Of a DNA stretch of 55,738 nt, positions 4,886 through 55,738 are shown piece after piece. The notes under the pieces were generated by a model that did no database searches, was not told the DNA's origin, and saw only the letters and a program-made list of their open reading frames with translations. The DNA comes from a virus (taxonomy: Duplodnaviria > Caudoviricetes), in IMG/VR virus record IMGVR_UViG_3300037243_000147, positions 1 through 55,738 of that record. One strand, given 5' to 3'. The translations under genes and the position numbers were made by a program. Each line of letters begins with the position of its first letter. Positions within the stretch are counted from its first letter, which is position 1.

Positions 4886-5254
4886 CTACAGCTTGACTCC
4901 CAATTTCTTCGCCCTCGCTATAGCGCCCTCTTGAGCTTCCCGTCTGGCTTTACCCCAATCACTCTCAGCCTCTACCTCCATCTGTGTAGCTGAGAACTCT
5001 ACCTCCATCCCGACCTCACACGCCCCTAACAGTAGAGCGGCCTCTATGTCTTCCCAGATAGCCTTGCTGGTTCCGATAGTGCCAATCCTCTGCCATTTGG
5101 TTTGACCATCGCCGCCATCGGGTACGCGCTGTAATATCTCGACTCTGCATCTACCCTTGCCTATACCCTCGGGTGTGTAGGTGACCTCTACCCGCAATAG
5201 TGATTTGATACCAGCCTGACTACCCCCACCTCCATCTCTACTGGTCATCCTCAC
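4886..5254 (-). CDS. hypothetical protein
   Basis: ORF track. Tightly packed in the leftward operon. Confidence 0.65.
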   Translation of the reverse strand: MRMTSRDGGGGSQAGIKSLLRVEVTYTPEGIGKGRCRVEILQRVPDGGDGQTKWQRIGTIGTSKAIWEDIEAALLLGACEVGMEVEFSATQMEVEAESDWGKARREAQEGAIARAKKLGVKL

Positions 5255-7011: not shown

Positions 7012-7278
7012 CTATCCGTGTATCAATTCGGCTATCGTCAACCCAAATAACTTACTCAATATCAATATGGTTGACAATTTCATATCAATATTCCCGGCCT
7101 CAATCCGGTACAAACTCGCTATTGCCAATCCACACTCCCCGCTCATCACCTCGATAGTCCATCCCCTGCCCAGCCTCAACCCCCTGACCCTCCGCCCTAT
7201 CCTGTCGTATACACTCTTAAATCTCTTCCGCTTCCATACGGCTTTCGTGGTAATCATAGTCTTAGTCTTACTGGTCAT
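7012..7278 (-). CDS. XRE/Cro-C1-type helix-turn-helix regulator
   Basis: IGRRVRGLRLGRGWTIEVMSGECGLAIASLYRIEAGNIDMKLSTILILSKLFGLTIAEL is a typical HTH_3 pattern. Start trimmed to MTSKTK. Confidence 0.85.
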   Translation of the reverse strand: MTSKTKTMITTKAVWKRKRFKSVYDRIGRRVRGLRLGRGWTIEVMSGECGLAIASLYRIEAGNIDMKLSTILILSKLFGLTIAELIHG

Positions 7279-7600
7279 AGTGAACACACGGCTACCATGA
7301 ACAAATAGAACAGGACCATGGCCAGCCCTATAAGCCCGTACAATACTACCAACCCTACCAACTCCCCCAACCACTCCATAAACCACGGCTGAGGCTTAGA
7401 CTCCAGCTCTGATTCAGATTCAGATTTAGACATTACACTCCCCCTTAACCCTTCTCTGTTACTGTCCCGTTACTATCATTCTTAGCGTGTCCAGTACAAA
7501 CCACGCCACATATCCACCTACCACCACCATTGCCACCATCACCCCAAACACCTTGAGCTTATCTCTTGCCGATTCCGTCTCCCACCTGTATACAGTCACG

Positions 7601-9261: not shown

Positions 9262-10128
9262 TTAGCGTCTTCCGGTTCCCTTACATGACCAGCAAGCCTG
9301 CCCGTATTTAATCTCATTGCCGCCGCACCGATCACAGAGCGGAGGGTTAGACATTGCCGCCGCCCGTGCTACTCGAATCGCCGCCGCTCGGCTCAAACCA
9401 TTAAAATCCCCAAATGTGTTCACATCTCCGTCTGCCGGATCAAAGCGGCGAACCGTAAAATGTCGCGCCGTGCCGTTATAGTTCTGCTCAGAGGTGACAA
9501 AGAATACTCCGCCCCCACCGCCGTAGATATCAGGAAGCACGCGAGACCTAAACGCCTTCATATTGCCACGGTCAAAAAAACATCCCCCAGCCGCGTAATT
9601 CATCGCTTGTAGCTCATCCATGTCTCGGGGAATCTTGCCGCCCGGTGTGGATTTAGGGCGGACAGTGTTACAGTACCGCTCAAGTACGGCTGCTGCTGCC
9701 TTGCGATACTCTGTCGGGTAGTATTGGCCTGTGCAGTAGGAGAGCCCGTCATTGTCCCAAGTCAATCGACCAGAGAACGCGCCAAACCCATCCATAAGCG
9801 CGGCATAGTCTGCTGGATAGCTGCGAGCCTCCGCCAGTGCCAACCGTGCGCGTTTACCGTCTGCTGCGATAGTTCGCGCGTCTTGAGCCATGCTGCGCCG
9901 TGCATCGATTCGCTGTTCTCGTGTGGAATACTTTAGCTGCTCGGGATGGCAACCGTAGTTTGCAGGGTCTAAGCCTGCACGCTGGTTAATGAATGTTTCG
10001 ATGTGGCTCAGAATGGATTGGACCGTGCAGGTATCAACGTTAGTAGCTGTAATGGTCATGGTATTCTCCGTGTTTATTGCCTGCTGGTTCCGCAGGGTTA
10101 AAGGTTTATGGTTTATGGTTAATGGCAA
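9262..10128 (-). CDS. conserved phage early protein, apparent two-domain fusion with C-terminal CxxC pair
   Basis: N-terminal part ...YCTGQYYPTEYRKAA; second part FFDRGNMKAFRSRV...FFVTSE...FTVR; C-terminal CDRC/CWSC. Likely start is MTITAT (~10059). Confidence 0.7.
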   Translation of the reverse strand: MPLTINHKPLTLRNQQAINTENTMTITATNVDTCTVQSILSHIETFINQRAGLDPANYGCHPEQLKYSTREQRIDARRSMAQDARTIAADGKRARLALAEARSYPADYAALMDGFGAFSGRLTWDNDGLSYCTGQYYPTEYRKAAAAVLERYCNTVRPKSTPGGKIPRDMDELQAMNYAAGGCFFDRGNMKAFRSRVLPDIYGGGGGVFFVTSEQNYNGTARHFTVRRFDPADGDVNTFGDFNGLSRAAAIRVARAAAMSNPPLCDRCGGNEIKYGQACWSCKGTGRR

Positions 10129-19882: not shown

Positions 19883-22123
19883 GTGAGAGTCCCACGCAAA
19901 AATCCAGAACTCAATGACAGGCTTCAAATATTGGACGAAAAGTTCATCGAAGCCCAGCGCCTCTCCAAAACCGATCTGGAAGTAGTCCCTCGCGCATGGG
20001 ACATGCTCAACGATGACGAACTACTATTCATCACTGACGAAACCGGCAAATGTCTCACTGACCGCCGCTATTTCATGGAGAACTACTACGTCATCCGTAA
20101 CGAGCGCGGCCAGCTCCAGACCCTCTACCCTTTTCTGGATTTTCAGAATACTATCTATGATGTAGTAGAAGAGGAATGGACTGCCAAAGGTTGTTGCCGA
20201 CTCATAATCCTGAAACCCCGTCAAACAGGCTCTACCACTTGGAACGCCGCTCTTATCTTTCACGGCACTATCTTCGTGCCCAATACATTCTCCATTGCCA
20301 TGGCTCAGGACGCTGAGGTATCAGGCGAAATCTATCAACGTATAATCAGCGCCTACCACGCACTACCATGGTTCATTCGTCCAGAGTACCTGTCTAAACA
20401 ACAGGGTAAACAAGTAATATTTCAACGTGAAGATGAAGGACTACGTAACATTGATCCAGGCTTAGGCTCCACTCTAATGATATCGAACGCTCAAAAAGCA
20501 GCGGGTGTCGCTATTGGGCGCAGTATAAGGAACGGATTATTTTCTGAGGTTTCGAGGTGGCCCGATGCTACTGTGTGGTCGAGTGACATTAAACCCAGTC
20601 TAAATGCTCCCGACATGCTAGGCATCATGGAGTCTACAGCGTTTGGACGCTCCGGTCTTTACTGGAATATGTGGCGGGCAGCCGAAGCAGGTAAGTCAAT
20701 ATGGCGTGCTCTGTTCCTGCCTGTGTATCACGTCCGAAAGTATTTCATACCCGTTACTGTCGGCGAGCCATTCACTCTTACTCCGGAAGAAAAGGCATTG
20801 CGATTGAATGTCAAATCCCGTGAGAATTTTACCATTCCATTAGGATTCTTCAAGTGGAGACGCGCAGACCTGATCGAAACAGTGAACTCAACTGGCAGTG
20901 AAGAGACGCATTACGAGTCATACCCAGTAACGTCAGGCGAGGCTTTCATATCGTCAGGATTCTGTGCATTCTCTCGTAAGGAGTTGTCGAGACAGGAGAG
21001 GGTAAATTGTTGTGATCCGAAGTGGATTGGTGAGATTGAATACGTCGGTCAGGAGTTAACTCCAATCCTTCATCTGCATGAACCACTCCCAGAAGAACTT
21101 ATAGATATCTCTGACCGCCACAACCGCCTATGGGTATGGGAAAAGCCAGAACCGGAATCGAGTCAGGTCGAATACTATCTCGGCAATGACGTGGGAGCGG
21201 GCAATGAGGGTAACGATTACTCATCAGCAATAATTTTGCGCTTAGGCTACGGCCCCAACCCCGATGTACAAGTCGCTGAATGGCACGGTCACGCCAACCC
21301 CACCCATTTGGCTCGCATGATCGCGGCTATCGGCCAGTGGTACAATATGTGCGAAATCGCCGTGGAGTATCAAGCGTCGGGCATTACCGTTGGAAACGAG
21401 TTGCAATGGAATTTAGATTACCCGGTTTTATATAGATGGAGAGTACAAGATAAGATCTCCAACACACTTTCGTCTCATGTGCATTGGCTCACAAATTCAC
21501 GTACTCGGGACGATGCTATTAACAGAGCTGGAGAAAAATTGTTAGACCACATGATCGTCATTCGTAACAAACATCTCATAGAAGAGATGCGTGATTTTGG
21601 TAGGCTAGAAGGGGAATTAAAAGCACAAGCATTATCCGCTCACGATGACCGAGTACTTGCCCTGCTTATCTGTATCGGTGCCTCTGTACAAACCGGCAAA
21701 CGACAAGAAATGACTGACCAAATGAGTATGGGAGTATCCACTTCAACGGCCGCAGGTGTAATGCCCCGTGGAACTCGCTACACAGTTTTTGACCATTTTT
21801 CTAGGATGGTTGCAGATGTAGGATCACTTGAAGAAGGCAATAAACTCATTGCTGACACCGAACGCATCCACAATGTAAAACTAAAAGGGCTATGGTCTGT
21901 AAAAGAAATTGTCCCAACGCGATGCAACACACCCTGGTCGCCGATCTGGGATTCTCAAGGGGCTGCTCGTGAACTCTACGATCAAGGCATGGAACCCAGA
22001 GATATAATGACCGGCCAGAATATTGTGGAGGTTTACAAACAGATGCTAACCGCACAACGCCACGCCGGAACAGGGGCAGATACGGCAGGGGATGCCGACA
22101 TTATTAACGACGAAGATTTTTAG
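19883..22123 (+). CDS. terL: terminase large subunit
   Basis: ILKPRQTGSTT (Walker A), LFSEVSRW (Walker B), ESTAFG (coupling motif), GNDVG/DYS/HDDRV nuclease acidic residues. Confidence 0.93.
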   Translation: MRVPRKNPELNDRLQILDEKFIEAQRLSKTDLEVVPRAWDMLNDDELLFITDETGKCLTDRRYFMENYYVIRNERGQLQTLYPFLDFQNTIYDVVEEEWTAKGCCRLIILKPRQTGSTTWNAALIFHGTIFVPNTFSIAMAQDAEVSGEIYQRIISAYHALPWFIRPEYLSKQQGKQVIFQREDEGLRNIDPGLGSTLMISNAQKAAGVAIGRSIRNGLFSEVSRWPDATVWSSDIKPSLNAPDMLGIMESTAFGRSGLYWNMWRAAEAGKSIWRALFLPVYHVRKYFIPVTVGEPFTLTPEEKALRLNVKSRENFTIPLGFFKWRRADLIETVNSTGSEETHYESYPVTSGEAFISSGFCAFSRKELSRQERVNCCDPKWIGEIEYVGQELTPILHLHEPLPEELIDISDRHNRLWVWEKPEPESSQVEYYLGNDVGAGNEGNDYSSAIILRLGYGPNPDVQVAEWHGHANPTHLARMIAAIGQWYNMCEIAVEYQASGITVGNELQWNLDYPVLYRWRVQDKISNTLSSHVHWLTNSRTRDDAINRAGEKLLDHMIVIRNKHLIEEMRDFGRLEGELKAQALSAHDDRVLALLICIGASVQTGKRQEMTDQMSMGVSTSTAAGVMPRGTRYTVFDHFSRMVADVGSLEEGNKLIADTERIHNVKLKGLWSVKEIVPTRCNTPWSPIWDSQGAARELYDQGMEPRDIMTGQNIVEVYKQMLTAQRHAGTGADTAGDADIINDEDF

Positions 22124-25228: not shown

Positions 25229-27118
25229 ATGGGAAGTTCACCGCTCAGTCCCGACTCAGGACCGTCTTTTGTGCCCCCTACTGCCCCGGCTCTTATGTCC
25301 CCGTCGAGAGCGCTTCAGTTAGAAGAGGAAGTTTTTCAGTTTACTGAGAGTATTTTCTCAGTTTTGACGGACGACAGGGACAGAGATCGAGAGGTGAAAG
25401 AGACATTACGTTCGGTGGACTTCCTCGAAGGGCGTCACTGGCGTGAAGGTCAACGGGCTCAGCGTAACCGCCCCGTACTCAATAAGGTTAAACGCCATTT
25501 CTGGGATCAGGTGGGACTGTTAACTGACTTGTCACTTGACTACTACGTGAAGATGTTCAACAAACTTGAGAGCTACTCTGAATTTGAGACTATCCTTAAC
25601 CAGCTTAGTGTCCGCTGGGCACAATCCAACGATGTTAAATTCCAAGACCGCTTCTATGACGTAACCCTCTACGGCCTCCTCCACACCGGCCCATCCAAGG
25701 TACAGTGGAACTCACAACTAATGAACGGCATGGGCGATGTCGAGATAGTCCCAATCGCACCCTGGCAATGGGGGACTCTAGGCGCAGGTAGCGACCCACA
25801 GCAATCTGAATGCATACTATTTTTCCCTGTCGTCACCAGAGATCATATACAGAGGAAGTATGGCAGACAGTTAGCCTCGCGTATTGAATGTGACATGGAG
25901 ATGTCAGGAGCGGCATTGAGTGGTCAATTCAAGCGGCCTTCTCATATTGACAAGGGATCATGGTCAAGAATGGGTGAAGGGCTAAGAGTATCACTAGGAG
26001 TTAAACGATCCACTCTTGGTAATGACTCTGTGTACCCGATGTGTATGTTGAAAGAGTATTGGCTCCGGGATAACAGTGTCAATGAGAGTAGCAGGACTGT
26101 TACAGTCGGCAATGACGCTTATAACTGGGCTTATCAGGTGGAACCGGGCGAATTCTTATACCCGAGGGGGAGAGTAATAGTAACAGCGGGTGGGGTAGTG
26201 TTAGAGGATAGCCCCAACCCATACTGGCACGCTAAGTTTCCGTTTTCCACTTTTCGGCCCTTTAGAGTTCCATGGCAGATGTCTGGGACGCCTGTTTGTC
26301 GTTCGTGGATTCAGATGAACCAAGTCATCAACACTCTTATGGGCGGTATGCTTGATTGTATCCGGTCCATCAACGAACCTACCCTTATCGGTCCTAAAGG
26401 CGCATTCCCCTCAGCGGATTGGGATGCATTAGACCCTGGTGCTCCCGGAGGCAAGATCAAATATGCCAATAACGCCCCCCGAGCGCCTGAGTTCGCCAAG
26501 AAAGCAGACTACCCCATAGCTGCCGTTATGCAAACCGTGGACCTCATTTCAAAGGAGTTGGATGCATCTTCGGGTGCCGCTGCCATGACAGCAGCTCTGG
26601 GCAAGAAGCAAGTGCCCGGTGGAGACTCATTGGAAATGATTATGGATTCCCGCTCACTGCCCGTAAAAATAGAATCCAAAGCCCTTGCCAATTATGTGGA
26701 AGATGCGGGGTGGATGGTAGTGTCGGATATGTTGCAGTTCTACTCTGTAGCTCACCGTGTTAACATCCTTGGCCCCAAAGGTATATCTAGTGCTGACTGG
26801 CGTCCTGTGTACGGCTCTGCAAAGCCCGTAGGCATGAAGAGTGAAGACTTCGTTCGTCAATTTCAAGGAATAGTACGCCGCGACACTCTACTCCAATCGC
26901 AGAAGCGTGATAAGGTCCAGTACGCGATAGCCTTGGCCAAGATGGGAAAACTGAGCGACGAAATGCTCTTTTCGATACTTGATCCCGATGGAGCAATTGA
27001 TTTCCAGGCCAATAAGCGCCAGCTCATCGAAGAAACGATATTAAAGATGAAGCTACAAGGCGCTGCGGCGGCTATGCAAGGTGCTGCAAAAGGAGGTGGA
27101 GGTAAAGGTAAAAAGTAG
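25229..27118 (+). CDS. portal protein
   Basis: 629 aa, between terL and the scaffold/capsid genes. FLEGRHW...RPVLNKV start is typical of P22-like portals. Confidence 0.8.
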   Translation: MGSSPLSPDSGPSFVPPTAPALMSPSRALQLEEEVFQFTESIFSVLTDDRDRDREVKETLRSVDFLEGRHWREGQRAQRNRPVLNKVKRHFWDQVGLLTDLSLDYYVKMFNKLESYSEFETILNQLSVRWAQSNDVKFQDRFYDVTLYGLLHTGPSKVQWNSQLMNGMGDVEIVPIAPWQWGTLGAGSDPQQSECILFFPVVTRDHIQRKYGRQLASRIECDMEMSGAALSGQFKRPSHIDKGSWSRMGEGLRVSLGVKRSTLGNDSVYPMCMLKEYWLRDNSVNESSRTVTVGNDAYNWAYQVEPGEFLYPRGRVIVTAGGVVLEDSPNPYWHAKFPFSTFRPFRVPWQMSGTPVCRSWIQMNQVINTLMGGMLDCIRSINEPTLIGPKGAFPSADWDALDPGAPGGKIKYANNAPRAPEFAKKADYPIAAVMQTVDLISKELDASSGAAAMTAALGKKQVPGGDSLEMIMDSRSLPVKIESKALANYVEDAGWMVVSDMLQFYSVAHRVNILGPKGISSADWRPVYGSAKPVGMKSEDFVRQFQGIVRRDTLLQSQKRDKVQYAIALAKMGKLSDEMLFSILDPDGAIDFQANKRQLIEETILKMKLQGAAAAMQGAAKGGGGKGKK

Positions 27119-39547: not shown

Positions 39548-39608
39548 GCAACGTCGGCATTAGCACTACATTGCCTGAGCTTGACCGTAATTGTTAAGGA
39601 TTATAGAT

Positions 39609-40691
39609 ATGTCATCGCCATCCATCCCGCCCATACCCTCACCGCTATACTTACTTGACCAATCACTACTACCGTGGCTGATCACCACCGGTAATGCGGG
39701 CCAGATTATCGCTACTCTTGTCGTTACCACTCCATCCACCTACCCCCTCTACCCTCCAGTCCCGTATGTATTACTAACCGACACCGCCACCTCTCTAGTC
39801 TGGAAATTGACCATCATCTCCACCGGAATATATCCGAATCTGTTAACCAATCTCCAAATCACTCTGTCATCGGGAGTCAATGTACCATCCGGTATATTAG
39901 CCCCGTCCCCGAACCTTACCAATTACCTCATTACCGTTACCAACTCTACTCTCACTACCACTCTCGCCCCATTCTTCCCCGGCAATAATAGATTGGGTCA
40001 GACTACAATTAGCACTCTAGCCTTTCGAGTCCAGCAGCGTTTAGAGGAAGAGGGGACGACAGCGGGCGAGTTCTGGTCGGTACAGTATGAGATTTATACA
40101 GCATTAGTCGAGGCCATCTCCGACCTCATGCTATTGGTGGGACGACCTACCCAGTCAGTCCAAATCCCATACTCATTTACTTTGAATACCCCATGGCAAA
40201 CAATGCCGACAGGTGTGTTTCTGATTACAAATATCTGGGGGCCGCAGGGTAATATCAGGAAAGTGGATTTGCACAGTATGGATTACGTAATGTCATCCTG
40301 GGGGCCGGGGTGGGAGTCGGACAGTAGTGTGAATGGCCCGCAGCGATGGTTCCCAATCGGACTCACCACCTTCGCCGTCCATCCCGCGCCATCCGTATCC
40401 CAAGTTGTAGCTATCGACGGGATTGCATTCCCCACCACCTCTACATGGCCGTACAGCGGCTCAGAGACAGTTCCATTCTCAGATGAGTTCTTTGTCGCGT
40501 TGGAAGAATATAGCTGCTCCTGTTTGCGTTTGAAAGAGGCGGGCAGCGAATTTCAAGATTCAATGTCCCTCTACAACTCCTATTTACAACTCGCTCGCCG
40601 CATGACTGAAATCCAGGACCGCCGTGATCCACTCATATTCTCACCTGTACTTGGCGGGACTGCCGGACTGCACTCACTCACCAAAAGGTAG
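39609..40691 (+). CDS. adaptor/tail tubular A-like structural protein
   Basis: RVQQRLEE...FWS..EIYTAL.EA; VHPAP; ALEEY...LKE pattern after an N-terminal beta extension. Confidence 0.6.
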   Translation: MSSPSIPPIPSPLYLLDQSLLPWLITTGNAGQIIATLVVTTPSTYPLYPPVPYVLLTDTATSLVWKLTIISTGIYPNLLTNLQITLSSGVNVPSGILAPSPNLTNYLITVTNSTLTTTLAPFFPGNNRLGQTTISTLAFRVQQRLEEEGTTAGEFWSVQYEIYTALVEAISDLMLLVGRPTQSVQIPYSFTLNTPWQTMPTGVFLITNIWGPQGNIRKVDLHSMDYVMSSWGPGWESDSSVNGPQRWFPIGLTTFAVHPAPSVSQVVAIDGIAFPTTSTWPYSGSETVPFSDEFFVALEEYSCSCLRLKEAGSEFQDSMSLYNSYLQLARRMTEIQDRRDPLIFSPVLGGTAGLHSLTKR

Positions 40692-47522: not shown

Positions 47523-47845
47523 GTACATCACCATCCACCTCCACCTCCACCTCTACTAATACTCAGACTATTGGCCGCCGTGGCCGCCGCCCCATCCCCC
47601 TGCCAGAATCCCCGCGCTTCGGCGGCTGCATCTCCGCGCCATTCATCTCCCACAAAAACATCCCGTCTCACTTCTGCAACCGCACCGCCACATGGGGGAT
47701 TAGAGGGGTAGGGATATTGTGTAACCCGCATTTCGAGATATACTTCGAGGAACATCCGGAGTTAGAGTTAGGGGATATAGTCAGGCTGAGTGACCGTGAT
47801 TGTCATTTTGGGGATGTCAAATCTGAATCCAGAAAGAGAAAATAA
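47519..47845 (+). CDS. hypothetical protein
   Basis: ATGA overlap with the upstream stop. AGGAG SD. Confidence 0.55.
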   Translation: MSTSPSTSTSTSTNTQTIGRRGRRPIPLPESPRFGGCISAPFISHKNIPSHFCNRTATWGIRGVGILCNPHFEIYFEEHPELELGDIVRLSDRDCHFGDVKSESRKRK

Positions 47846-47852
47846 TACTAGT

Positions 47853-48635
47853 ATGGCTAACACTCCCAATCCCGCCCCCTCCACCCCCCTCCCCCAAGTC
47901 AACTTCACCGAGTCCGATCTCTCATCCCCATCCCAATTCATTGCCCAACTCAACACTACCATGAATAATCACGCCCAAGTCCTCAACCAGTTCCTCGGCT
48001 ACGGCAACAATCAAGGCTCAATACCGATTAGCGGTCAACTGGATTTACAAGGGAATAAAATTACCAATGTAGCGCCCGCAACTACTGGTAGCGATGTCAT
48101 CACCCATGATGTAGCCGAGAGTCGATACTCTGCCCCAGCGCTGAAGAAACACTTTGAGTCAGGCGGTAAGTCATCATTAATCTCATATAGGCAGCTAAAT
48201 AATAACGGTCAAAGGGAGAGTTCCTCATCCTTTCTCAATGATCTTGTCTCAACCGCACCCACCGCTAACACCAGTACCATCTCAGCTACCACCCCCGCCG
48301 GAGGCACTACCTCTGTTACCGTCAGCGCAGGTACATTCTCCAAAGTCGATAACACTATCGTTCATTATCTGAGCCTGACATCATCCCTAGCTGTCCCCGG
48401 CTCAGGTGAAGTCGTTTACTATGTGTTTATTCAGAAACGCTCGACTGAGCTATTCCTGTACCCGACCTCATTTCCTGCCGACACTTGGGCCAACAGAGTC
48501 TCAGCTAGTTTCGACGGAAACACTTTGATCGCGGTTATCGTTCTGAATAGTGGCGGACTCGATACTGTTAATAGTGGAGGCGGTGGCACTCCTCCAATTG
48601 CAGGTGCGAATGTCAGGCTGTTTGGGAGGCTATAG
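47853..48635 (+). CDS. tail/structural protein
   Basis: GQLDLQGNKITNVAPATTGSDVIT fibre-type motif. Confidence 0.6.
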   Translation: MANTPNPAPSTPLPQVNFTESDLSSPSQFIAQLNTTMNNHAQVLNQFLGYGNNQGSIPISGQLDLQGNKITNVAPATTGSDVITHDVAESRYSAPALKKHFESGGKSSLISYRQLNNNGQRESSSSFLNDLVSTAPTANTSTISATTPAGGTTSVTVSAGTFSKVDNTIVHYLSLTSSLAVPGSGEVVYYVFIQKRSTELFLYPTSFPADTWANRVSASFDGNTLIAVIVLNSGGLDTVNSGGGGTPPIAGANVRLFGRL

Positions 48636-48914
48636 ATGGCGTTTCACATCGAAATCATCTCCATCGACAAGGACGGATTCGCTGGAATTATCTCAGCCAA
48701 ATTCCGCATCCACGACGACAGTGATAAGGTGAATGGGGTAGGCAGTACGGAGAAATTCACAATCGGTGCATTAGAGATTGTCGAGAGATATCACGGAAAC
48801 GTCACCGAATGGATCACTACATCCGTCGCGCCCGGTATGCTCGCCCGCCATAAATCCCGAGTCGCTGTCCACTCCGATCTATACTCGCTCAAAGGCAAGC
48901 GACTGCCACTGTGA
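48636..48914 (+). CDS. hypothetical protein
   Basis: GGGAGG SD. Confidence 0.65.
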   Translation: MAFHIEIISIDKDGFAGIISAKFRIHDDSDKVNGVGSTEKFTIGALEIVERYHGNVTEWITTSVAPGMLARHKSRVAVHSDLYSLKGKRLPL

Positions 48915-48960: not shown

Positions 48961-49173
48961 GTGACGACGACTCCCCATGACACCGACAATACCAACAATA
49001 CCAACGACCCCGCCATCGCCACCACTATCGATCATCATCACGGCTTCTCAATACTTCTACGGCTGGACCCTGACGATCTCAAAAAACTGGACAGGCTCGC
49101 CGTGAAAAAGAAACTGACCAGAACGGCGGCAATCAGGGAGTCAATCAGAGCGTGGGCGCGGAGGATATTGTGA
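48961..49173 (+). CDS. ribbon-helix-helix (CopG-like) regulator, leaderless
   Basis: SILLRLDPDDLKKLDRLAVKKKLTRTAAIRESIRAW. GTG is 7 nt after the -10 box. Confidence 0.85.
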   Translation: MTTTPHDTDNTNNTNDPAIATTIDHHHGFSILLRLDPDDLKKLDRLAVKKKLTRTAAIRESIRAWARRIL

Positions 49174-50393
49174 GCGAATCAACCAATGTGTGTGTAGGCT
49201 ATATTACCGCGTGGCGCTGGTGGGGAGTGGCCGAGACTACTCTAATCCCGTCCGGTAATCGCTATATTCGCGACTTCCTTCCGCGTAGTACAGCATGGGA
49301 GAATCATTGGAAGTGGTCGGGGGAGAATATCGCCCGTAACCTGCATGACATCCTGTATGACGTACGGGAGTGCAGTCAGACTGAAATCACCCCCGAAAAC
49401 CAACTGGGATTCTATGCCTTCAAGGATAACGGCATTGAGCACGTAGACAGTGACGCCGTACTGTTTGGTCGTGTAGCTCTATATGGCGATGTCTGCGAAC
49501 ACGAATACGGCTACCGTGCTGAAAAAGCCCGTATCCTTGACGTATACTGCCGCGAAGACTGGTATCCAAAACTATCCCACATCCCGCAAATCAAAGGTAT
49601 ATACAAAATCACTGACAAACCCCCTGTGTTGTCCCCGATAGTTGATAGTGATGGTAACCCATACACTTATGAGGAGAATTGCAAATGTCTTTCATTGGTC
49701 CCAGTAAAGATAGAATCGTGCGGTATGAGCCCATCGGATTCCCCGACGATACCCGAACCTCTAACCCTGACTATCCGCAGCTGCAGCGCGAGCGCGAACC
49801 TGACCGTGAGCATGTTGGGGTCGAGCCTGTACGATCAGCTCCAGTATCTGTGCCCGCTGATTTCCACAACTATCGGTACTGACGGGAAGTATCTCAACTC
49901 GACTCTCTACGCGCCCGAGACTAGCCTCCCTGCCATCATCGAACCTGTCGGCGACTATTGCTCAATCTGTAACTGCCGCATTCTCGCCACTGATGCTGTA
50001 GTGGTCGCGCACTGTTTCCCTGACGACTACCAACAGAAAATCATTGACAATACGTTTGAGTTTGTCAAGGTAATGACGCACTGGGATTGCGAGACTCAAA
50101 TCCGCTGTAACGACGACAATCTAATTCCACTCACTGAGATAGATTCGGTAGCGTTCTATGGTAACCACAATGGTAACTATTGCCACTGGTATACCTACGG
50201 CTACGGCTATACCTATGGCGGGATCATGCGCTCTGACAACCCTATAACCTCTATCCCGCCATCCGATCCCGTGCCTGGATTTATCCACGGACAGCGATAC
50301 AATATGTATCCGGATAAGGCTGAGTCCAAGCCTAAACACAGTGGCGGCAAGAAGACGAAAAATTGGAAGCAGGAGAGGATGTGGCAGGCATGA
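49152..50393 (+). CDS. conserved phage protein (AWRxW...GFYA...GRVALYG..EH..GYRA) with long C-terminal extension
   Basis: Motif recognition of the N-terminal ~170 aa. Confidence 0.6.
   Translation: MGAEDIVSESTNVCVGYITAWRWWGVAETTLIPSGNRYIRDFLPRSTAWENHWKWSGENIARNLHDILYDVRECSQTEITPENQLGFYAFKDNGIEHVDSDAVLFGRVALYGDVCEHEYGYRAEKARILDVYCREDWYPKLSHIPQIKGIYKITDKPPVLSPIVDSDGNPYTYEENCKCLSLVPVKIESCGMSPSDSPTIPEPLTLTIRSCSASANLTVSMLGSSLYDQLQYLCPLISTTIGTDGKYLNSTLYAPETSLPAIIEPVGDYCSICNCRILATDAVVVAHCFPDDYQQKIIDNTFEFVKVMTHWDCETQIRCNDDNLIPLTEIDSVAFYGNHNGNYCHWYTYGYGYTYGGIMRSDNPITSIPPSDPVPGFIHGQRYNMYPDKAESKPKHSGGKKTKNWKQERMWQA
49685..49882 (+). CDS. nested small Pro/Glu-rich protein in an alternative frame
   Basis: GAGGAG SD 8 nt before ATG. 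MSFIGPSKDRIVRYEPI...REREPDREHV. Confidence 0.55.
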   Translation: MSFIGPSKDRIVRYEPIGFPDDTRTSNPDYPQLQREREPDREHVGVEPVRSAPVSVPADFHNYRY

Positions 50394-50791
50394 GTAATGA
50401 TAATGGTAAAGGTAAACTCATCAACCACGGCATATTCAATCTCGGACAGGCCAACAACGAATCCGACGAGAATGAGGTATTCACCGAGACTATCAAGGTG
50501 TCAGACTGGGCAGCCAGGGGTGATGTCAATACCGCCGAATTGACTCGAATACTTCGTCAAATCGCCAAAGTGGCTAACTACATGGGCGGAAATATCATGA
50601 GGGTATCGGCAATGTCTGCTACAGGTAAAGACGCTGGCGCAGGCTCGCCGATCACTCAGGCTGTATTACAGATAGCGTCTGTGTCCGAGGGCATGGCAAT
50701 ACAATTAGAGCGGGCCGCGACTCAAATCATGCCTGCCAATGGACCTATATTTCCGGGTAATACTAGTGGCCATCCGACAGGGAGGGCATAG
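50390..50791 (+). CDS. hypothetical protein
   Basis: ATGA overlap with the upstream stop. Confidence 0.65.
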   Translation: MSNDNGKGKLINHGIFNLGQANNESDENEVFTETIKVSDWAARGDVNTAELTRILRQIAKVANYMGGNIMRVSAMSATGKDAGAGSPITQAVLQIASVSEGMAIQLERAATQIMPANGPIFPGNTSGHPTGRA

Positions 50792-51228
50792 TGCAAAGGT
50801 TCGAGTTTGACTACTTTGAGCGATTCAGTTTCTTCGCTATCCATGCCCTCTACCACAAACTGATAGTATTGATTATCGCTATCAGTCTGTCTCTATTGGC
50901 GTTCAGACTCGCTACCGATCCCCTTGCTATCATCCTCCTGCTCTCATCTATAACCCTAGCTATACTGTTTGAGGCGTGGATGACTTACAACTACGAGGGG
51001 TATCTACACTCCAAATACCCTCTCAATCTCCCTGTCGAAATCGAACGGATGCAAAAGGTAGTTGACAGTAGTAGTGTGGGTATCGGGTCAAAATACAACT
51101 ATACTGGCCCCACCAACTACACTACCATAGCCTATGCCACCACTATCATTCTCGGACTATCCACGATAGTTGCGTTTGTCATGGGGATGTTAAGACTAGC
51201 TCTACTGTGCGGAGGTCAACAGTCATGA
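50791..51228 (+). CDS. multi-pass membrane protein
   Basis: About three hydrophobic helices. GGGAGG SD. Confidence 0.65.
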   Translation: MQRFEFDYFERFSFFAIHALYHKLIVLIIAISLSLLAFRLATDPLAIILLLSSITLAILFEAWMTYNYEGYLHSKYPLNLPVEIERMQKVVDSSSVGIGSKYNYTGPTNYTTIAYATTIILGLSTIVAFVMGMLRLALLCGGQQS

Positions 51229-51584
51229 CCGATACCAATACCAATACCAATACCGATACTATTCTCAATATGCCCGATATCACCTCCCGAATCCTCACTA
51301 TCCTCTCCGTATACTCAGGCATAGACATCGACTCCATCACCTGTGAGAGTGGACCCAACACTCCTATCAGTAGTCTTGATTTCGACTCGCTGGAGATGGT
51401 TGAGGTAGTGCAGGAGTTAGAGAAGGAGTTCAGTATCGACATTAGTGATAGCGATATTGAGCGATTAGTAACTGTAGGAGAGCTGGTGGAGTATGTCGCT
51501 CGGAAAGTGAATGAGCAGAAGATTGCCGAATACAAGGCTACCAATGCTGAGATTGTAAGAGGATTCGATGACGGAGAGTTATAG
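51225..51584 (+). CDS. acpP: acyl carrier protein
   Basis: LDFDSLEMVEVVQELEKEFSIDISDSDIERLVTVGELVEYV matches ACP helices II-IV with the DSL phosphopantetheine Ser. GGAGGT SD. Confidence 0.9.
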   Translation: MTDTNTNTNTDTILNMPDITSRILTILSVYSGIDIDSITCESGPNTPISSLDFDSLEMVEVVQELEKEFSIDISDSDIERLVTVGELVEYVARKVNEQKIAEYKATNAEIVRGFDDGEL

Positions 51585-52335
51585 CAGGAGTAAGGATAAG
51601 GATATTGATCCGCTACTAGCTCTAGCTGACGATCATTACACTCTCGGCCCGTGTAAGGTTATTCTCTATAACCGCACCAAGACTGCATTATTCGGTGACG
51701 ATCTACTATCCCGGCTATACGATGCCTGTCTAGCCTCGCGTCCATCCCACCCATTCGGAATACTCCCGTCAGCTATGTGCGGCATGGTTGATCTGAGCCG
51801 TGACGCCATGATCAGCTATTGGGCCACTAGAAATCCACTTCTGCTACTAACACTCGATCACAAGTCATACTCAGCTAAATCTGTCCTCGATGTCCGTAGC
51901 TCACCAATTCTGACAGACGGTACTATCGTGGCCGGATTCTCATTCATCACTGCCTTCCAAGGTGCGGCTATATCTCTAAATGGTGGTCCACAGCCAATGG
52001 GAGAGAGATCGGCATTAGGAGCCTATCTGTATTTCCGTCCGTTCTGGGGGACGCCGGAGATAGAAATCCTAAATTTATTGGGTTTATCTCTGTATTTTCA
52101 CAACTACAAGTTATCGGCTATCCACGGACAACGATTCGCGTATAACGTGGCCACTGAAAAATTCATGCGAAGATTTGGGAGTAGAGATGTCGGCACCCTC
52201 CAACGATTCCTAGCCGACCGCAAAGATGGGCGTGCAGACGGTGAAATTATACTGTCAGATTGCATTGTGTCTGAACTACTCAGGGAAAATTTCATTGAGT
52301 ATGTTTCTCGCCAACTACTTAGCCTGATCCCCTAA
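51568..52335 (+). CDS. GNAT-like acyl/acetyltransferase
   Basis: IVAGF...YLYFRPFWG...AIHGQRFAYNVATEKFMRRFGSRDVGTL resembles RimJ/RimL-type GNAT motifs. Position before the ejection proteins, as for T7 gp13-like genes. Confidence 0.6.
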   Translation: MTESYSRSKDKDIDPLLALADDHYTLGPCKVILYNRTKTALFGDDLLSRLYDACLASRPSHPFGILPSAMCGMVDLSRDAMISYWATRNPLLLLTLDHKSYSAKSVLDVRSSPILTDGTIVAGFSFITAFQGAAISLNGGPQPMGERSALGAYLYFRPFWGTPEIEILNLLGLSLYFHNYKLSAIHGQRFAYNVATEKFMRRFGSRDVGTLQRFLADRKDGRADGEIILSDCIVSELLRENFIEYVSRQLLSLIP

Positions 52336-52393
52336 TTCTTCCCCGCCCTCTACCCCTACCCCGCCAAACTAGATTACCATTGGGCGGTATAGT

Positions 52394-53020
52394 GTGAGTG
52401 CCGGAGGACGGGCTGTGGGCGGAAAGAGCAGCGGGGTTTCGACTCAGGTCAGTGCGGGCGAACAGGCTAACAGCAACGCACTTACCCAAGTCGCGGTCGG
52501 TCAGGCCGCAAACTCACAGCAGCTCTACAATCTCACCGAGCCCGGTCTCGCTCAATCCGAGAACTTCTACCAGACTCTTGCTGCCGGTGACCCCGCCGCT
52601 ATCATGAAGGCTATAGCCCCAACCGCACAGGGGGCGTCAGACTCGGCTACAGCCGCCAAAGCCAACATCATGGCTAATAGCCCGACAGGCGGCGAAAAGA
52701 ATTTAGCGTTAGAACAGGTCCAAGCTGGCCAAGGCGCGACTATTGCCAAGACTATCTCCGGGGCTACCACTGGCGCATATCAAAACTTAGGAGCGTTGGC
52801 GGGCCAAGGGGTAGGCGAGAGCATATCGGCCAGTGGAGCGGCCACTAGCGCGTATGGTACAGCTAATCAGGGACTAGGACAGTTAGGCAGCCAGCAAATC
52901 CAAGCTCAGCAAATCAATGCCCAAGAAAAGGGCGCGACACTGGGCGCGGTATCGGGACTAGGCGGCTCGGTAATGCAGGCAGCAGGCGCGGCGGGTAGCT
53001 TTGGGGATTTATTCGGTTAG
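52394..53020 (+). CDS. DNA ejection / internal virion protein (small, G/A/Q-rich)
   Basis: N-terminal GGKSS, Ala/Gly/Gln-rich helices, hydrophobic Gly-rich C-terminus (P22 gp7-like composition). Confidence 0.6.
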   Translation: MSAGGRAVGGKSSGVSTQVSAGEQANSNALTQVAVGQAANSQQLYNLTEPGLAQSENFYQTLAAGDPAAIMKAIAPTAQGASDSATAAKANIMANSPTGGEKNLALEQVQAGQGATIAKTISGATTGAYQNLGALAGQGVGESISASGAATSAYGTANQGLGQLGSQQIQAQQINAQEKGATLGAVSGLGGSVMQAAGAAGSFGDLFG

Positions 53021-53045
53021 GACATAAAGGGGGAGGAATTGACAG

Positions 53046-55574
53046 ATGCCACCACAGACACAGAGCGTAGTTGACGATCCCAATGCCGTTGCCGCCCCAC
53101 CTGTCCCCGGTACTCCTACTGCCCCCGCTAACCCTGACCCCGCCTCATGGGATCCTGTGCATTACACTGCCCCCACTCCCGACCCTAACCTTCCCACCCC
53201 CGTTAAAGCTCCTGCCGTGCCTGACACCGCCAACCCTACCCAAGGCCAGGATCTCGCATTCGGGGGTGGCGTTAAGGGCGCTATTGGTACTGTCGCTACC
53301 CTCGCAAACTCATTTCTAACCGGAGCTATCAAGGGTAGTCAGCAATTCCAGCAAAAGCAAATAGCGATGGCTGGAAAGAAAATAGAGGCGGTGCAGTCGA
53401 GTAAGAATGCAGCCTCCGATAAGATGTACGACCTAGCCCAGCACCCTGACATCAAGCCTATACTCCGAAAGCAGATGGCTGACCCTAAATATCAGCTCAC
53501 ACCCGAAGAGATGAAAACCGTGCAGCCGTTTATCGAGGCCCGTAATCAGTCCCATGCTCTGAACGACATCCTCGGACAGATGCAGACTGCATACGCTCAG
53601 AGTCAGTACGGGGGTAAAGGGAAAGGAAAGGGTAAGAAGGGGGATGGCGGGGGAGGGGATGCGGTAGATTTGTCGGCGCTGATGAATCCAAATGCGTCTA
53701 TCGAGGACAAGACAAAGGCGGCAATAGCATTCAGAGCCAAAGCTGGGGACATTGCGGATTACAGAGTGACAGCATTACTATCACAGCCCGAACCAGTACG
53801 AAGCCCCGATGAGCGCCAGAACTCTCTCTATGCCCAGATTGACGATCTTAATCACAAGCTCAATCGCACTGAAGCTGACAATGCCAAACTCAAATCCATG
53901 AGCGACGAGTATGACGCTAACAAGAAGCGGTTGGAGGCCACTCCCAAAGCATCCACTACCGGCCCAAAAGTAATGGGGATAGGCGTAGACTCTGCTGGGA
54001 AGGAAGCCCCTTTAATCTGGGATAACGAGTCTCAGGCTATGGTTCCGGCCAAACTCCCAGAGGGGTACGATCTGGTAAAAAAGCCGTCCACAGGCTCTAT
54101 CCGCAAGCCCGATCACTTTGATGATTTTAAGGCACAGGTAGCGCGAGAGGCTGGGATTGATGTCAAAGATTTAAGTGCATCCTCACTACTCGCTCTGAAT
54201 AGAGCATTTGCTGACTCTCATAAGACAGGTTCGTTCAGCAACGGAGTCTACCACTATCAAGACACATCTACTGGACAAGAGGTAGAAGTCCCAATCACCC
54301 ACAGCACTCCGGCCCCAGCATTGAATGTGCCGAAAGTGTCAGCATCTCAAGGGGCTATACCCAAAGCCCCCTCTGTGCCCTCTACATCGCCAGCCACCGC
54401 TACTAAGGCTATCAATCCCTATCCCAACCCAGAAGATCAGCCGCCCGACGTGTCCATGAAATTCAACCAGTCATGGACGAAACCGGATTGGAAACTAACT
54501 GTACTCCCACCCGAGGAGGAAGCTAAGTTCCAGATATGGGCAAAACAGAATCCCAATTCTGTCCGAGGTGAATTAGACAACCCGAAAGCCGATTACGATG
54601 TTCGCGCTCACTGGGCGGCGGCACAGAGAGGTGATCCCGAGGCGAGTCTCAAATTAAACGAATGGGACGGCAAGATGCATGGCAATGACAAATTCAAGAC
54701 CCCCTATAACGGGACATTCTCAAACGAGTCCATGTATGCCACTCCCGACGCCCCTCGGTGGCAAGGTGACAAGTTAGTAACTAAAGACGGGCAGCTAGTT
54801 ACTGATGAGACACCTAAGCCGAAAGCCCCTGCCGTACCTCTACAGGCTGTCGCCAGTCAGGTCAAACACGCTAAAACCCACGCTCCCGCGACCCAATCTG
54901 CTTCGGCATCCAATACAGCTACAGCTCCCAAGCCTGCCCGAGCCCCCGCCGCCACTAGCGCTAACACCCTGCCTCCCGGCTCTCCAAAAGGTGCTCGCGT
55001 AATCGGCTCTACCATGTCTGCCGCCGAGAAAATGGATGCCCGCGAGATTATCGCTGCCGGGAAAGATGCCCGCTCTCTGGACGCCGCCCTTGCCACCATG
55101 GACGACTACGTAGGCGGAATCAAATCCGGCACAGTCCCCCGCGACTCCCGCAAAGATTTAGACCTGATGATCGGTGCTGTCCGCGCCATGAACCCCGGCT
55201 CCCGCCGCCTTCCGCAGCAGGAATTGAAAATGGAAATCGAAGCCGGATCATGGGATCAGGTCATGGGCAGAAAGTTGTCAGTGTGGTCCAAAGGTACTAT
55301 CCCCGACGACCAGCGCACATCCCTGTACAATATTCTGAAAGATGAGACTACAAAATTCAGTTCATCTGTAGCTCGCGATTACGAGACAAAACTCCCGCAA
55401 CTATCTCTGCCCGATCATCTAAAGCGGTATGCCACAAAAAGGGAAGGGGGTAGCGGCATGGGTGTAAGTCTATCCGACGCCCGCAAACTCCCGTTCAACA
55501 AGGGTAAATCGGACGCTGAAATTACCAAAGACTTGGAATCTCGCGGACATACGGTACTCCCTGATGGCCACTAA
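53046..55574 (+). CDS. large internal virion / ejection protein
   Basis: 842 aa, Pro-rich linkers, EEAKFQIW...DYDVRAHW...DKFKTP...FSNESMY domain. Gene order. Confidence 0.55.
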   Translation: MPPQTQSVVDDPNAVAAPPVPGTPTAPANPDPASWDPVHYTAPTPDPNLPTPVKAPAVPDTANPTQGQDLAFGGGVKGAIGTVATLANSFLTGAIKGSQQFQQKQIAMAGKKIEAVQSSKNAASDKMYDLAQHPDIKPILRKQMADPKYQLTPEEMKTVQPFIEARNQSHALNDILGQMQTAYAQSQYGGKGKGKGKKGDGGGGDAVDLSALMNPNASIEDKTKAAIAFRAKAGDIADYRVTALLSQPEPVRSPDERQNSLYAQIDDLNHKLNRTEADNAKLKSMSDEYDANKKRLEATPKASTTGPKVMGIGVDSAGKEAPLIWDNESQAMVPAKLPEGYDLVKKPSTGSIRKPDHFDDFKAQVAREAGIDVKDLSASSLLALNRAFADSHKTGSFSNGVYHYQDTSTGQEVEVPITHSTPAPALNVPKVSASQGAIPKAPSVPSTSPATATKAINPYPNPEDQPPDVSMKFNQSWTKPDWKLTVLPPEEEAKFQIWAKQNPNSVRGELDNPKADYDVRAHWAAAQRGDPEASLKLNEWDGKMHGNDKFKTPYNGTFSNESMYATPDAPRWQGDKLVTKDGQLVTDETPKPKAPAVPLQAVASQVKHAKTHAPATQSASASNTATAPKPARAPAATSANTLPPGSPKGARVIGSTMSAAEKMDAREIIAAGKDARSLDAALATMDDYVGGIKSGTVPRDSRKDLDLMIGAVRAMNPGSRRLPQQELKMEIEAGSWDQVMGRKLSVWSKGTIPDDQRTSLYNILKDETTKFSSSVARDYETKLPQLSLPDHLKRYATKREGGSGMGVSLSDARKLPFNKGKSDAEITKDLESRGHTVLPDGH

Positions 55575-55738
55575 CACTAATACTAGTGATCCATACGCGA
55601 CTATTTTGAAGCCGCTGACGCCGGAACAAAAGAGTGTGTCTACCGCCGTCGCGGCGTCGAAAAAGTATGCTGCAGCTAACTCTAACGATCCCTACGCATC
55701 CATCTTAAGGCCTATCCCTGGCTCAACACCCTCTGGCC
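55564..55738 (+). CDS. 5' end of the next (probably large ejection) protein, truncated by the window
   Basis: MATNTNTSDPYATILKP...NDPYASILRP, open to the window end. Confidence 0.6.
   Translation, partial: MATNTNTSDPYATILKPLTPEQKSVSTAVAASKKYAAANSNDPYASILRPIPGSTPSG

Follow-up and report, generated by a model that had tools for sequence, protein, structure and literature searches.

A predicted GNAT-fold protein, a Met-Gly ejection-protein candidate and an acyl carrier protein, adjacent in one clade, at the head of a putative podovirus DNA-ejection gene block

We analyzed IMG/VR virus record IMGVR_UViG_3300037243_000147, a linear sequence of 55,738 bases (completeness 58%, CheckV estimate), which was examined over its entire length and is referred to below as the window. 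The phage is a podovirus, as the window encodes a portal and an adaptor of the SU10 type (Table 1); a large terminase and tail-spike-like proteins were also recognized with PHROGs. The region studied here, at the right end of the window, is most likely the head of a podovirus DNA-ejection gene block. It holds genes for a conserved 142-amino-acid (aa) protein, a small membrane protein, an acyl carrier protein (ACP) and a 255-aa protein predicted to adopt the GNAT fold, followed by genes for a 201-aa protein with a Met-Gly N terminus and for two larger proteins. A preliminary description of the window had placed a membrane protein, an ACP with an intact Asp-Ser-Leu serine and a GNAT-like gene, overlapping one another, ahead of the ejection genes; all of these are present in the sequence, with two start codons corrected.

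Table 1. Genes and signals of the ejection-block region, followed by other window features named in the text
Feature	Position	Strand	Basis or remark
142-aa conserved protein ending ...GRA	50363-50791	+	opens the coupled run; no Pfam or PHROG match
145-aa membrane protein, three hydrophobic segments, GTG start	50791-51228	+	Kyte-Doolittle
Acyl carrier protein of 119 aa, likely start ATG 51225 (alternative start GTG 51207)	51225-51584	+	PF00550, phrog_5934
255-aa predicted GNAT-fold protein, "internal virion protein A" slot, new sequence family	51568-52335	+	profile, fold
Shine-Dalgarno GGAGGA for GTG 52415, 6-nt spacer	52403-52408	+	read in sequence
201-aa Gly/Ala/Gln-rich protein, N terminus M-G-G-K-S-S; putative first ejection protein	52415-53020	+	T7 gp14 / P22 gp7 slot
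842-aa protein, Gly/Lys/Ser linker; putative second ejection protein (gp15 slot)	53046-55574	+	position and size only
Next large gene, open at the 3' end of the window; putative third ejection protein (gp16 slot)	55564-55738	+	position
Large terminase	19883-22123		PHROGs
SU10-type portal	25229-27118		Pfam
SU10-type adaptor	39591-40691		Pfam
281-aa tail-fibre-like protein	47790-48635
92-aa protein	48636-48914
CopG-type ribbon-helix-helix protein	48961-49173		PF01402, E 5e-6

The first four genes of the run (142-aa protein, membrane protein, ACP and GNAT) are translationally coupled. The TAG stop codon of the 142-aa open reading frame (ORF) shares one nucleotide with the GTG start of the membrane-protein gene, whose TGA in turn overlaps the ATG of the ACP gene (ATGA). 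Given this overlap and a GGAGG located 9 nt upstream, the ATG at 51225 is likely the ACP start, rather than the GTG at 51207. The ATG of the GNAT gene lies within the ACP gene, the two overlapping by 17 nt, and is preceded by GAGGA 4 nt upstream. The 201-aa gene most likely starts at GTG 52415 and not at 52394 (which would give 208 aa), since the former has a GGAGGA at a 6-nt spacing and an identical public gene call (P0097). In the membrane protein, 19-residue Kyte-Doolittle windows of at least 1.6 were found at residues ~12-54, 40-66 and 111-143; it matched no Pfam or PHROG family, and its Atlas leads were weak (scores <0.9) and pointed to no family.

The ACP was readily identified. It matched the Pfam PP-binding model PF00550 with E 2.9e-12 (47.1 bits, cut-off 20.8) and phrog_5934, "acyl carrier protein", with E 5e-13; its net charge is -17, and all 12 phage ACPs in the alignment share D54-S55-L56. 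Judged by these matches it is a genuine ACP, in which the predicted attachment serine is conserved.

The 255-aa protein could not be assigned to a family directly. Neither the protein nor five close homologues matched any Pfam model, even at E ≤ 10, or any PHROG, and the PF13302 cut-off of 25.4 bits was not reached. A word-index search returned 6 relatives only; the profile made from them (A1), searched against 1.84 billion representatives, matched 91 proteins, 58 of them at E ≤ 1e-10. We scanned 71 of the 91 with Pfam; the truncated call from the window itself and short fragments were excluded. PF13302 (Acetyltransf_3) was matched by 26 at E ≤ 0.01 and by 22 above the curated cut-off; the positive proteins all belong to the weak tail of the A1 search and match profile positions ~137-210. 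The link of the window protein to Acetyltransf_3 thus appears transitive only.

An AlphaFold model made with 6 sequences had a predicted local distance difference test score (pLDDT) of 48 and was unusable for fold search, although its elements already followed the GNAT order. With 84 sequences (alignment A3, which contains Acetyltransf_3-positive distant rows), the AlphaFold2 model reached pLDDT 93.5 and a predicted TM score (pTM) of 0.90, and its elements run b1-a1-a2-b2-b3-b4-a3-b5-a4-b6-b7, the full GNAT order with no element lost. Residues 21-251 form one GNAT domain. In the public annotation this protein is only 186 aa long (P0002, from Met70); the true protein is 255 aa, as both the homologues and the model place the N-terminal 70 residues within the fold. 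Foldseek matched the model to 324 PDB chains at E ≤ 1e-3, all of those listed being GNATs; at the top were PA3270-type N-acetyltransferases (8gxk, 1yre), RimJ (6c30) and TTHA1799 (2z10), with E values from 6e-9 to 4e-6. A VIA-align search of 48,161 representatives gave Z 15.1-14.4 over 157-181 residues for PseH, PA3270, TTHA1799, a lasso-peptide acetyltransferase, RimL, PA4794 and RimJ, and Z 15.1-11.8 across the best 50 rows, among which RimI, Ard1, NatC and Naa60 were also found. No acyl-ACP-dependent GNAT (LuxI-type synthases, RTX-toxin activators) appeared in the best 50 rows of either structure search, which is not evidence of absence. At the profile level, A3 matched the PDB sequence of RimJ (3igr) with E 1.2e-6, and a profile restricted to the 27 syntenic family members (A4) gave E 0.72 for 3igr and, at best, E 0.077 (3fbu). 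The model and both structure searches thus confirm the preliminary assignment of 51568: as modeled, it is a GNAT-fold protein.

Six polar residues of this protein (W160, G187, R189, N193, S235 and R239) are conserved in at least 93% of the 27 rows, and Y153 and T196 in 85-89%; they sit on the strands and the loop that bind the cofactor in GNATs. The motif A loop between b4 and a3 is conserved too (W160 96%, G161-T162), but reads W-G-T-P-E-I. RimJ, RimL and PA3270-type GNATs (PF13302) are the closest relatives by both profile and fold, and the conserved Asn at the start of their a4 aligns with N193. The window protein differs from them by its low identity (9-17%), by ~70 extra residues (loops 97-119 and 133-146 and a longer N terminus) and by the W-G-T-P of motif A. 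RimJ and RimL acylate N-terminal amines of proteins, as do RimI and, lower in the VIA-align ranking, Ard1, NatC and Naa60.

To see what travels with the GNAT gene, we used the 201-aa protein (A2) as bait and obtained 23 viral loci and 3 genome-contig loci. A GNAT-family hidden Markov model (HMM) matched an ORF upstream of the bait in all 26 (23/23 viral and 3/3 genome-contig loci), weakly in one of them (L032, E 1.8e-7), with gaps between the two genes of -76 to +568 nt. The N terminus of the bait family is strongly constrained. A start residue followed by Gly was found in 101 of the 120 listed homologues (88 MG, 10 VG and 3 LG), and in several of the others the motif stands a few residues in, or the protein was called from a later Met. 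All 34 alignment rows have Gly2, at a mean column identity of 57%. Among the viral loci, the start codon is followed by a Gly codon in 19 of 23 (L021 is ambiguous); L026 has M-S-G-K, and the near-identical L016, L017 and L019 have T-G-K without a canonical start codon. A lysine follows the Gly within 1-7 residues in nearly all viral loci. The motif looks alike in genomes with and without an ACP. Since a glycine in second position favors the removal of Met1, the glycine amine would be exposed.

The three loci without a canonical start (~4989-5001) read ...S-D-T-G-K-S-S-G, with no ATG, GTG or TTG ahead of the Gly. In each, GGAAGGAG lies ~10 nt upstream of the ACG codon, so a non-canonical start is possible.

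The ACP is distributed differently. It is adjacent in five of the 23 viral loci (L015, L021, L024, L026 and L030, the last being on the same contig as L002) and also in the metagenome loci L003, L005 and L009. Upstream sequence is lacking in L004, L006, L007 and L008; L004 and L008 match L005 and L009 over the shared part and were counted with them. In the window and in L003, L005, L009, L021 and L024, the ACP and GNAT genes overlap or directly adjoin; in L015 (3771-4345) and L026 (3957-4327), 370-580 nt separate the two, and a Cys-rich ORF of 74 aa lies in the L015 interval. In a maximum-likelihood tree, 27 GNATs were split, at 100/99 support, into groups of 13 and 14 rows. In the 14-row clade every one of the 9 visible loci has an adjacent ACP, the upstream region of 5 rows being out of view, and this clade is deep, its GNATs sharing ~36-45% identity. 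Upstream of the GNAT gene, at variable distance, the membrane-protein HMM matched 17 ORFs, which come from both clades. We conclude, with certainty or close to it, that the Met-Gly protein is co-inherited with the GNAT and that the ACP is a clade-level addition. Five GNAT residues are specific to the ACP clade (G43, P59, L92, Q188 and C232). Two of these, Q188 (14/14 in the ACP clade, 0/13 in the sister clade) and C232 (12/14 and 1/13), are located on b5 and b7, which flank the GNAT active site; this is suggestive only, since any clade has private residues.

The position of the GNAT gene has precedents. In T7, gene 13 (PF11090, "internal virion protein A") precedes internal proteins of ~200 aa, 600-850 aa and larger (gp14-gp15-gp16), as here, and a table in one review gives the protein sizes of the T7 block (PMC8954989). 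In P22, gene 14 (PF11039, DUF2824; phrog_651, "head morphogenesis") lies directly upstream of genes 7, 20 and 16, as the GNAT gene does in the window. The likeness extends to the fold: BFVD models named "Internal virion protein A" matched that of the window protein (E 4.4e-4 to 5.9e-3), as did a BFVD DUF2824 model (E 2.7e-4, TMt 0.69), and a distant relative of the GNAT (P0082) touches PF11039 (22.6 bits, cut-off 25) and phrog_651 (E 1.2e-6). At the sequence level neither slot-mate resembles the window GNAT, which has no PF11090 or PF11039 match and hhalign probabilities of 0.2% with T7 gp13 and 1.1% with P22 gp14, the single-sequence templates used for T7 and P22 proteins making the sensitivity of these comparisons low. 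The window GNAT therefore shares slot and fold with T7 gp13 and P22 gp14 and stands outside both sequence families.

The third precedent is SIO1. A passage on SIO1 and related cobaviruses notes a GNAT next to the genes for internal virion proteins and says that it "could correspond to gp13 from T7" (PMC6775973). The SIO1 record has the order acetyltransferase, gp26.1, gp26, with the GNAT first as in the window; SIO1 differs in the N terminus of gp26.1, which starts MVAVTGTVLAIAG (hydrophobic), in sequence family and in having no ACP within positions 15000-39898 of its record. The preliminary statement that a GNAT-like gene recurs ahead of internal virion genes in podoviruses thus holds for P22 gene 14, T7 gene 13 and SIO1.

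T7 gene 13 and P22 gene 14 are needed for infectious particles; to our knowledge, no biochemical role has been assigned to this slot. In our search of the literature (listings and some passages), the GNAT position was found in print, and neither an ACP partner nor the N-terminal glycine was mentioned. Judged by the papers searched, the sequence family of the GNAT, the ACP coupled to it and the invariant glycine at the N terminus of the neighboring protein appear new; the GNAT slot itself was already known.

The 201-aa protein compares with the first ejection proteins of T7 and P22 mainly by position. It had no Pfam match to T7 gp14 (PF24072) or P22 gp7 (PF25688), with hhalign probabilities of 0.4% and 0.2%, respectively, and its profile found nothing meaningful among PDB sequences; one Atlas lead was a cluster with 17% P22_gp7 (score 0.92). 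P22 gp7 is similar in its layout, having a hydrophilic N terminus and its most hydrophobic stretch near the C terminus. It also carries a Gly/Lys tip as here: according to its record (L037:570-680), a 20-residue leader is removed by host OpdA, and the mature protein begins K-G-G-K-G-G. P22 differs from the window in that this tip arises by proteolysis and not by Met removal, gp14 has 151 aa and not 255, and its block has neither an ACP nor a membrane gene. T7 gp14 starts MCWAAAIPIA, which is hydrophobic and not Met-Gly, and T7 has no ACP at the slot. The N termini of the 201-aa family are hydrophilic (Kyte-Doolittle -0.6 to -1.2), with the most hydrophobic stretch near the C terminus; in T7 gp14, SIO1 gp26.1 and phiKMV gp35, a small sample, that stretch is at the very N terminus (1.0-1.7).

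The 842-aa protein had no Pfam match above threshold and no PHROG match, and PHROGs recognized no ejection-protein family among the large downstream proteins of L002 and L008 or among diverse family members. Its homologues, of 623 aa in L002 and 675-678 aa in L008, follow the homologue of the 201-aa protein and have a K/S/G-rich stretch at the equivalent place; the third position is occupied by ORFs of 911 aa (L002) and 855 aa (L008).

Taken together, these observations suggest a possible function for the GNAT slot. Our tentative reading, which we regard as possible rather than probable as a whole, is that an active GNAT modifies the N-terminal Gly/Lys tip of the protein encoded next door and that, in the ACP clade, acyl-ACP serves as the donor. 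The 255-aa protein would be an active N-acyltransferase, and its substrate the ~200-aa first ejection protein, in which Met1 removal would expose the Gly, with a lysine within a few residues. In the ACP clade, the phage's own ACP would act as donor through its phosphopantetheine thioester, with host enzymes converting it to the holo form and loading it. The N terminus would receive an acyl, possibly fatty acyl, cap, which would help the hydrophilic tip to engage the host envelope; a lipid cap would thereby give the 201-aa family, whose N terminus is hydrophilic, what T7 gp14-type proteins have built in. Where sister clades lack an adjacent ACP, the enzyme may take its acyl group from a phage ACP whose gene lies at another place, from host acyl-ACP or from acyl-coenzyme A (acyl-CoA). 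The co-transcribed small membrane protein might conceivably hold the reaction at the membrane. Within the window, the GNAT is the sole acyl-transfer-type enzyme recognized with Pfam among the 10 ORFs of the module and 49 other ORFs of at least 90 aa. A complex prediction for GNAT (A4) and ACP (A5) scored 0.00; it was run without controls and weighs neither for nor against binding.

In its most specific form, the proposal becomes phage-encoded N-terminal fatty-acylation, with acyl groups passing from a host-loaded ACP through a single-domain RimJ-like GNAT to Gly2 or a nearby Lys of the first ejection protein, so as to form a membrane anchor, for which T7-type gp14 proteins have a hydrophobic helix of their own. 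We consider this full sequence of steps unlikely. It has a eukaryotic analogue at most. N-myristoyltransferase (NMT) acylates Met-Gly N termini, and picornavirus VP4 and reovirus mu1 are myristoylated entry proteins; the enzyme consists of two tandem GNAT domains and uses myristoyl-CoA as donor. The resemblance would lie in the proposed mechanism and is not one of family: a GNAT fold, a Met-Gly terminus on a membrane-breaching protein released upon entry, and a fatty-acyl thioester donor. NMT differs in having two domains and a myristoyl-CoA donor, as opposed to one domain and, at most, an ACP donor here.

Several results weigh against acylation from acyl-ACP. First, the supply of a loaded ACP is not evident in the phage: phosphopantetheinyl transferase (PF01648), AMP-binding (PF00501) and ketosynthase (PF00109) genes were each found in 0 of 5 records, namely the window and four ACP-clade records, all fragments (55-84%), so priming and loading would need host enzymes. 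Second, the three downstream genes are taken to encode ejection proteins from their order, size and composition, together with the Atlas lead for the 201-aa protein. Third, a Met-Gly protein after the GNAT slot is not a general podovirus rule. We considered such a rule and rejected it, as the T7 protein starts MCW and the SIO1 protein MVAV, and phiKMV has no gene in the GNAT slot; Met-Gly is a trait of the 201-aa family and not of podoviruses generally, the T7, SIO1 and phiKMV proteins beginning with a hydrophobic stretch.

The distribution of the ACP points in the same direction. The preliminary description had proposed to follow its co-occurrence with the GNAT and had taken orthologous GNATs lacking a neighboring ACP, with no modification found, as a refutation, which applies in part: the adjacency seen throughout the visible loci of one clade is absent from the sister clade (0/13 rows). 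Since it maps to one branch, it represents a single evolutionary event kept in a deep clade and not a repeated co-occurrence. We then searched whole records with PF00550. An ACP was found in 5 of 5 ACP-clade records, which served as the positive control; among 14 sister-clade records (that of L014 was left out), 6 have an ACP elsewhere and 8 have none. Three of the records without one are complete genomes (100, 98 and 100%, CheckV) that retain the GNAT and Met-Gly. As these three lack any PP-binding gene, a dedicated ACP is unneeded for the core job of the GNAT. ACP genes were thus present in 11 of the 19 records searched, and the ACP is an accessory gene that is frequent in this phage group yet mobile. 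Where it occurs elsewhere, it lies directly after a DnaB-like helicase gene (G001, L034:1417-1704), near the left end (G002, L033:737-1243; G018:2442-2645) or at other places at least 13 kb from the GNAT locus (G010:64127-64321, G011:4125-4328, G014:3933-4133).

The ACP slot also accepts other genes. Sister-clade loci have 1.2-1.7 kb of other ORFs separating the membrane gene from the GNAT gene (L010:2319-3879, L011:2503-3711, L013:2007-3699, L018:2677-3976), and the inserts of L010 and L013 encode a P-loop protein (...GKTTALLEFV...). The slot is therefore insertion-prone, and the ACP could be an unrelated auxiliary gene in a permissive place. Finally, the top structural relatives, RimJ, RimL, PA3270 and PseH, are all acyl-CoA enzymes; those of the RimJ/RimL/PA3270 type use acetyl-CoA and have no carrier-protein partner. 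The consensus of GNAT motif A, the pyrophosphate-binding motif, is Q/R-x-x-G-x-G/A; the W-G-T-P-E-I of the window protein, which aligns to Q-G-K-G-I-M of RimJ 3igr, departs from it.

These points bring up the strongest alternative, which we find nearly as likely as transfer from acyl-ACP, if also tentative: the GNAT would be an acetyl- or acyl-CoA-dependent N-terminal or lysine acetyltransferase acting on the Met-Gly protein, and the ACP a separate auxiliary gene (for example, one interfering with host lipid metabolism or ACP processes) in the insertion-prone space. CoA binding by the nearest relatives, the contrast between a GNAT/Met-Gly pair kept in 26 of 26 loci and an ACP adjacent in one clade only, the ACPs that lie elsewhere or are absent from complete genomes, and the other occupants of the slot are all in its favor. 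It does not explain why the ACP-GNAT coupling has been held in every visible locus of the clade across deep divergence, often with overlapping codons, nor why no other ACP-using enzyme was found in these phages; the non-canonical CoA pyrophosphate motif also argues against it.

The GNAT fold could instead be non-enzymatic, the protein helping, as an assembly factor or chaperone, to bring the ejection proteins into the procapsid, a role that tradition assigns to T7 gp13 and P22 gp14; Met-Gly would then be kept for packing, Met removal or expression, and the ACP would be unrelated or an acidic chaperone. The names given to its slot-mates ("probable scaffold protein" for PF11090, "head morphogenesis" for P22 gp14), the degenerate motif A, the lack of a Pfam GNAT match for the protein itself and the failure of the core-only A4 profile to reach PDB GNATs below E 0.077 are consistent with such a role. 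Yet the strands that form the cofactor and active sites have retained polar residues across 27 diverse rows, the predicted fold is confident and complete, and the invariant D-S-L of the adjoining ACP argues for a carried thioester. We consider this explanation plausible but less likely than the two above.

It is quite improbable, in our estimate, that the GNAT acts on another target, either the ACP itself (thiol loading, priming or acetylation) or a host molecule reached after ejection with the internal proteins. GNAT-type loading domains of polyketide synthases such as CurA load the ACP thiol, and the ACP-GNAT gene pair, taken alone, fits a loader and its carrier. The name "Internal virion protein A" implies virion association in some phages, and the PA3270-type GNATs at the top of the fold search are described, in the abstract of PMC9561280, as toxins of toxin-antitoxin pairs. 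Action on another target would leave unexplained the GNAT and Met-Gly pair in all 26 loci, including genomes without an ACP, and no downstream enzyme was found that would use a loaded ACP.

The preliminary description had put forward a broader modification, in which Gly-flanked lysines throughout the virion are lipidated. The motifs it quoted are all present in the proteins named: GGGGKGKK at the portal C terminus, GGGKK in the 35079 protein, GGKGKGKGKKG at residue 189 of the 842-aa protein and, in the 201-aa protein, GGKSSG at residue 2. The pattern GGK[GKS] or GKGK occurred 8 times in 7 of 41 late-region proteins, as against 0.74 ± 0.89 after shuffling (0 of 500 shuffles reached 8); it was picked after examples had been seen, and the count shows only clustering beyond composition. 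Although this enrichment and the recurrence of the K/G/S linker in homologues of the 842-aa protein speak for it, lipidation of the portal tail, the 35079 protein, the 842-aa linker and the microproteins from acyl-ACP by the GNAT, making the whole conduit membrane-active, is the least probable explanation by our estimate, as the motifs are ordinary flexible basic linkers, the pattern is post hoc, the lysine of a GGKSS in the tail-fibre-like protein is lost in L002 and L005, and nothing ties the scattered motifs to the enzyme. The N-terminal Gly of the adjacent gene product is the only one that is both invariant and co-inherited with the GNAT; as Met-Gly alone travels conserved with the enzyme, N-terminal rather than general lysine modification is indicated. 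The tail-fibre-like GGKSS lies at residue 125 and is the same sequence as at the N terminus of the 201-aa protein.

The locus offers three handles on the function of the slot: a complete predicted GNAT fold, a candidate acceptor in Met-Gly and, in one clade, a candidate donor in the carrier protein. Should the proposed acylation of the Met-Gly protein take place, an injected virion protein would for the first time be seen to be lipidated or capped by phage-encoded means, and an ACP to have a new use beyond lipid and polyketide synthesis. A fatty acyl cap would also give bacterial viruses a counterpart of the myristoylated entry proteins of animal viruses, and the T7 gp13 / P22 gp14 slot an enzymatic function. 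The finding would be categorically new only if the modification is demonstrated; if it is absent, the ACP stays an unexplained but common accessory gene of the phage group.

Related phages were found as contigs of 90-100 kb, several of them with terminal repeats and a completeness of 98-100%. Three relatives are in metagenome bins labeled Granulicella, Candidatus Acidiferrales and Verrucomicrobia, which are a hint at the host only. The phage group is large and comes from soil and peat, with hosts probably among the Acidobacteriota, as judged by the labels of metagenome-assembled genomes only. When the portal and the 255-aa protein were compared by tblastn with 50,697 deposited phage records, there was no match.

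Homologues of the 142-aa protein that opens the coupled run, with G-R-A at the C terminus, occupy the equivalent place in L002 (6804-7082), L003 (529-999), L009 (2-367) and L021 (3470-3916); that of L005 ends differently. Upstream of the run, the ribbon-helix-helix (RHH) gene and the 92-aa gene have the tail-fibre-like gene (whose product ends in ...RLFGRL) on one side and the ACP/GNAT genes on the other. Both are kept in L002, L003 and L005, and L026 retains an RHH-like ORF and the ...RLFGRL fibre gene. The RHH gene, together with the PA3270-type toxins at the top of the fold search, led us to consider a GNAT/RHH toxin-antitoxin pair. We rejected this reading, as the RHH gene lies at a distance of 2.4 kb and four genes from the GNAT gene, which is tied to the structural block in all loci; the RHH gene may be a late-operon regulator. 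The left, early region of the window encodes two adjoining AAA_25 ATPases, an HTH_31 regulator and a DUF7447 protein (2463-4042, + strand; 7012-7386 and 9262-10128, - strand), and its other ORFs are mostly without family.

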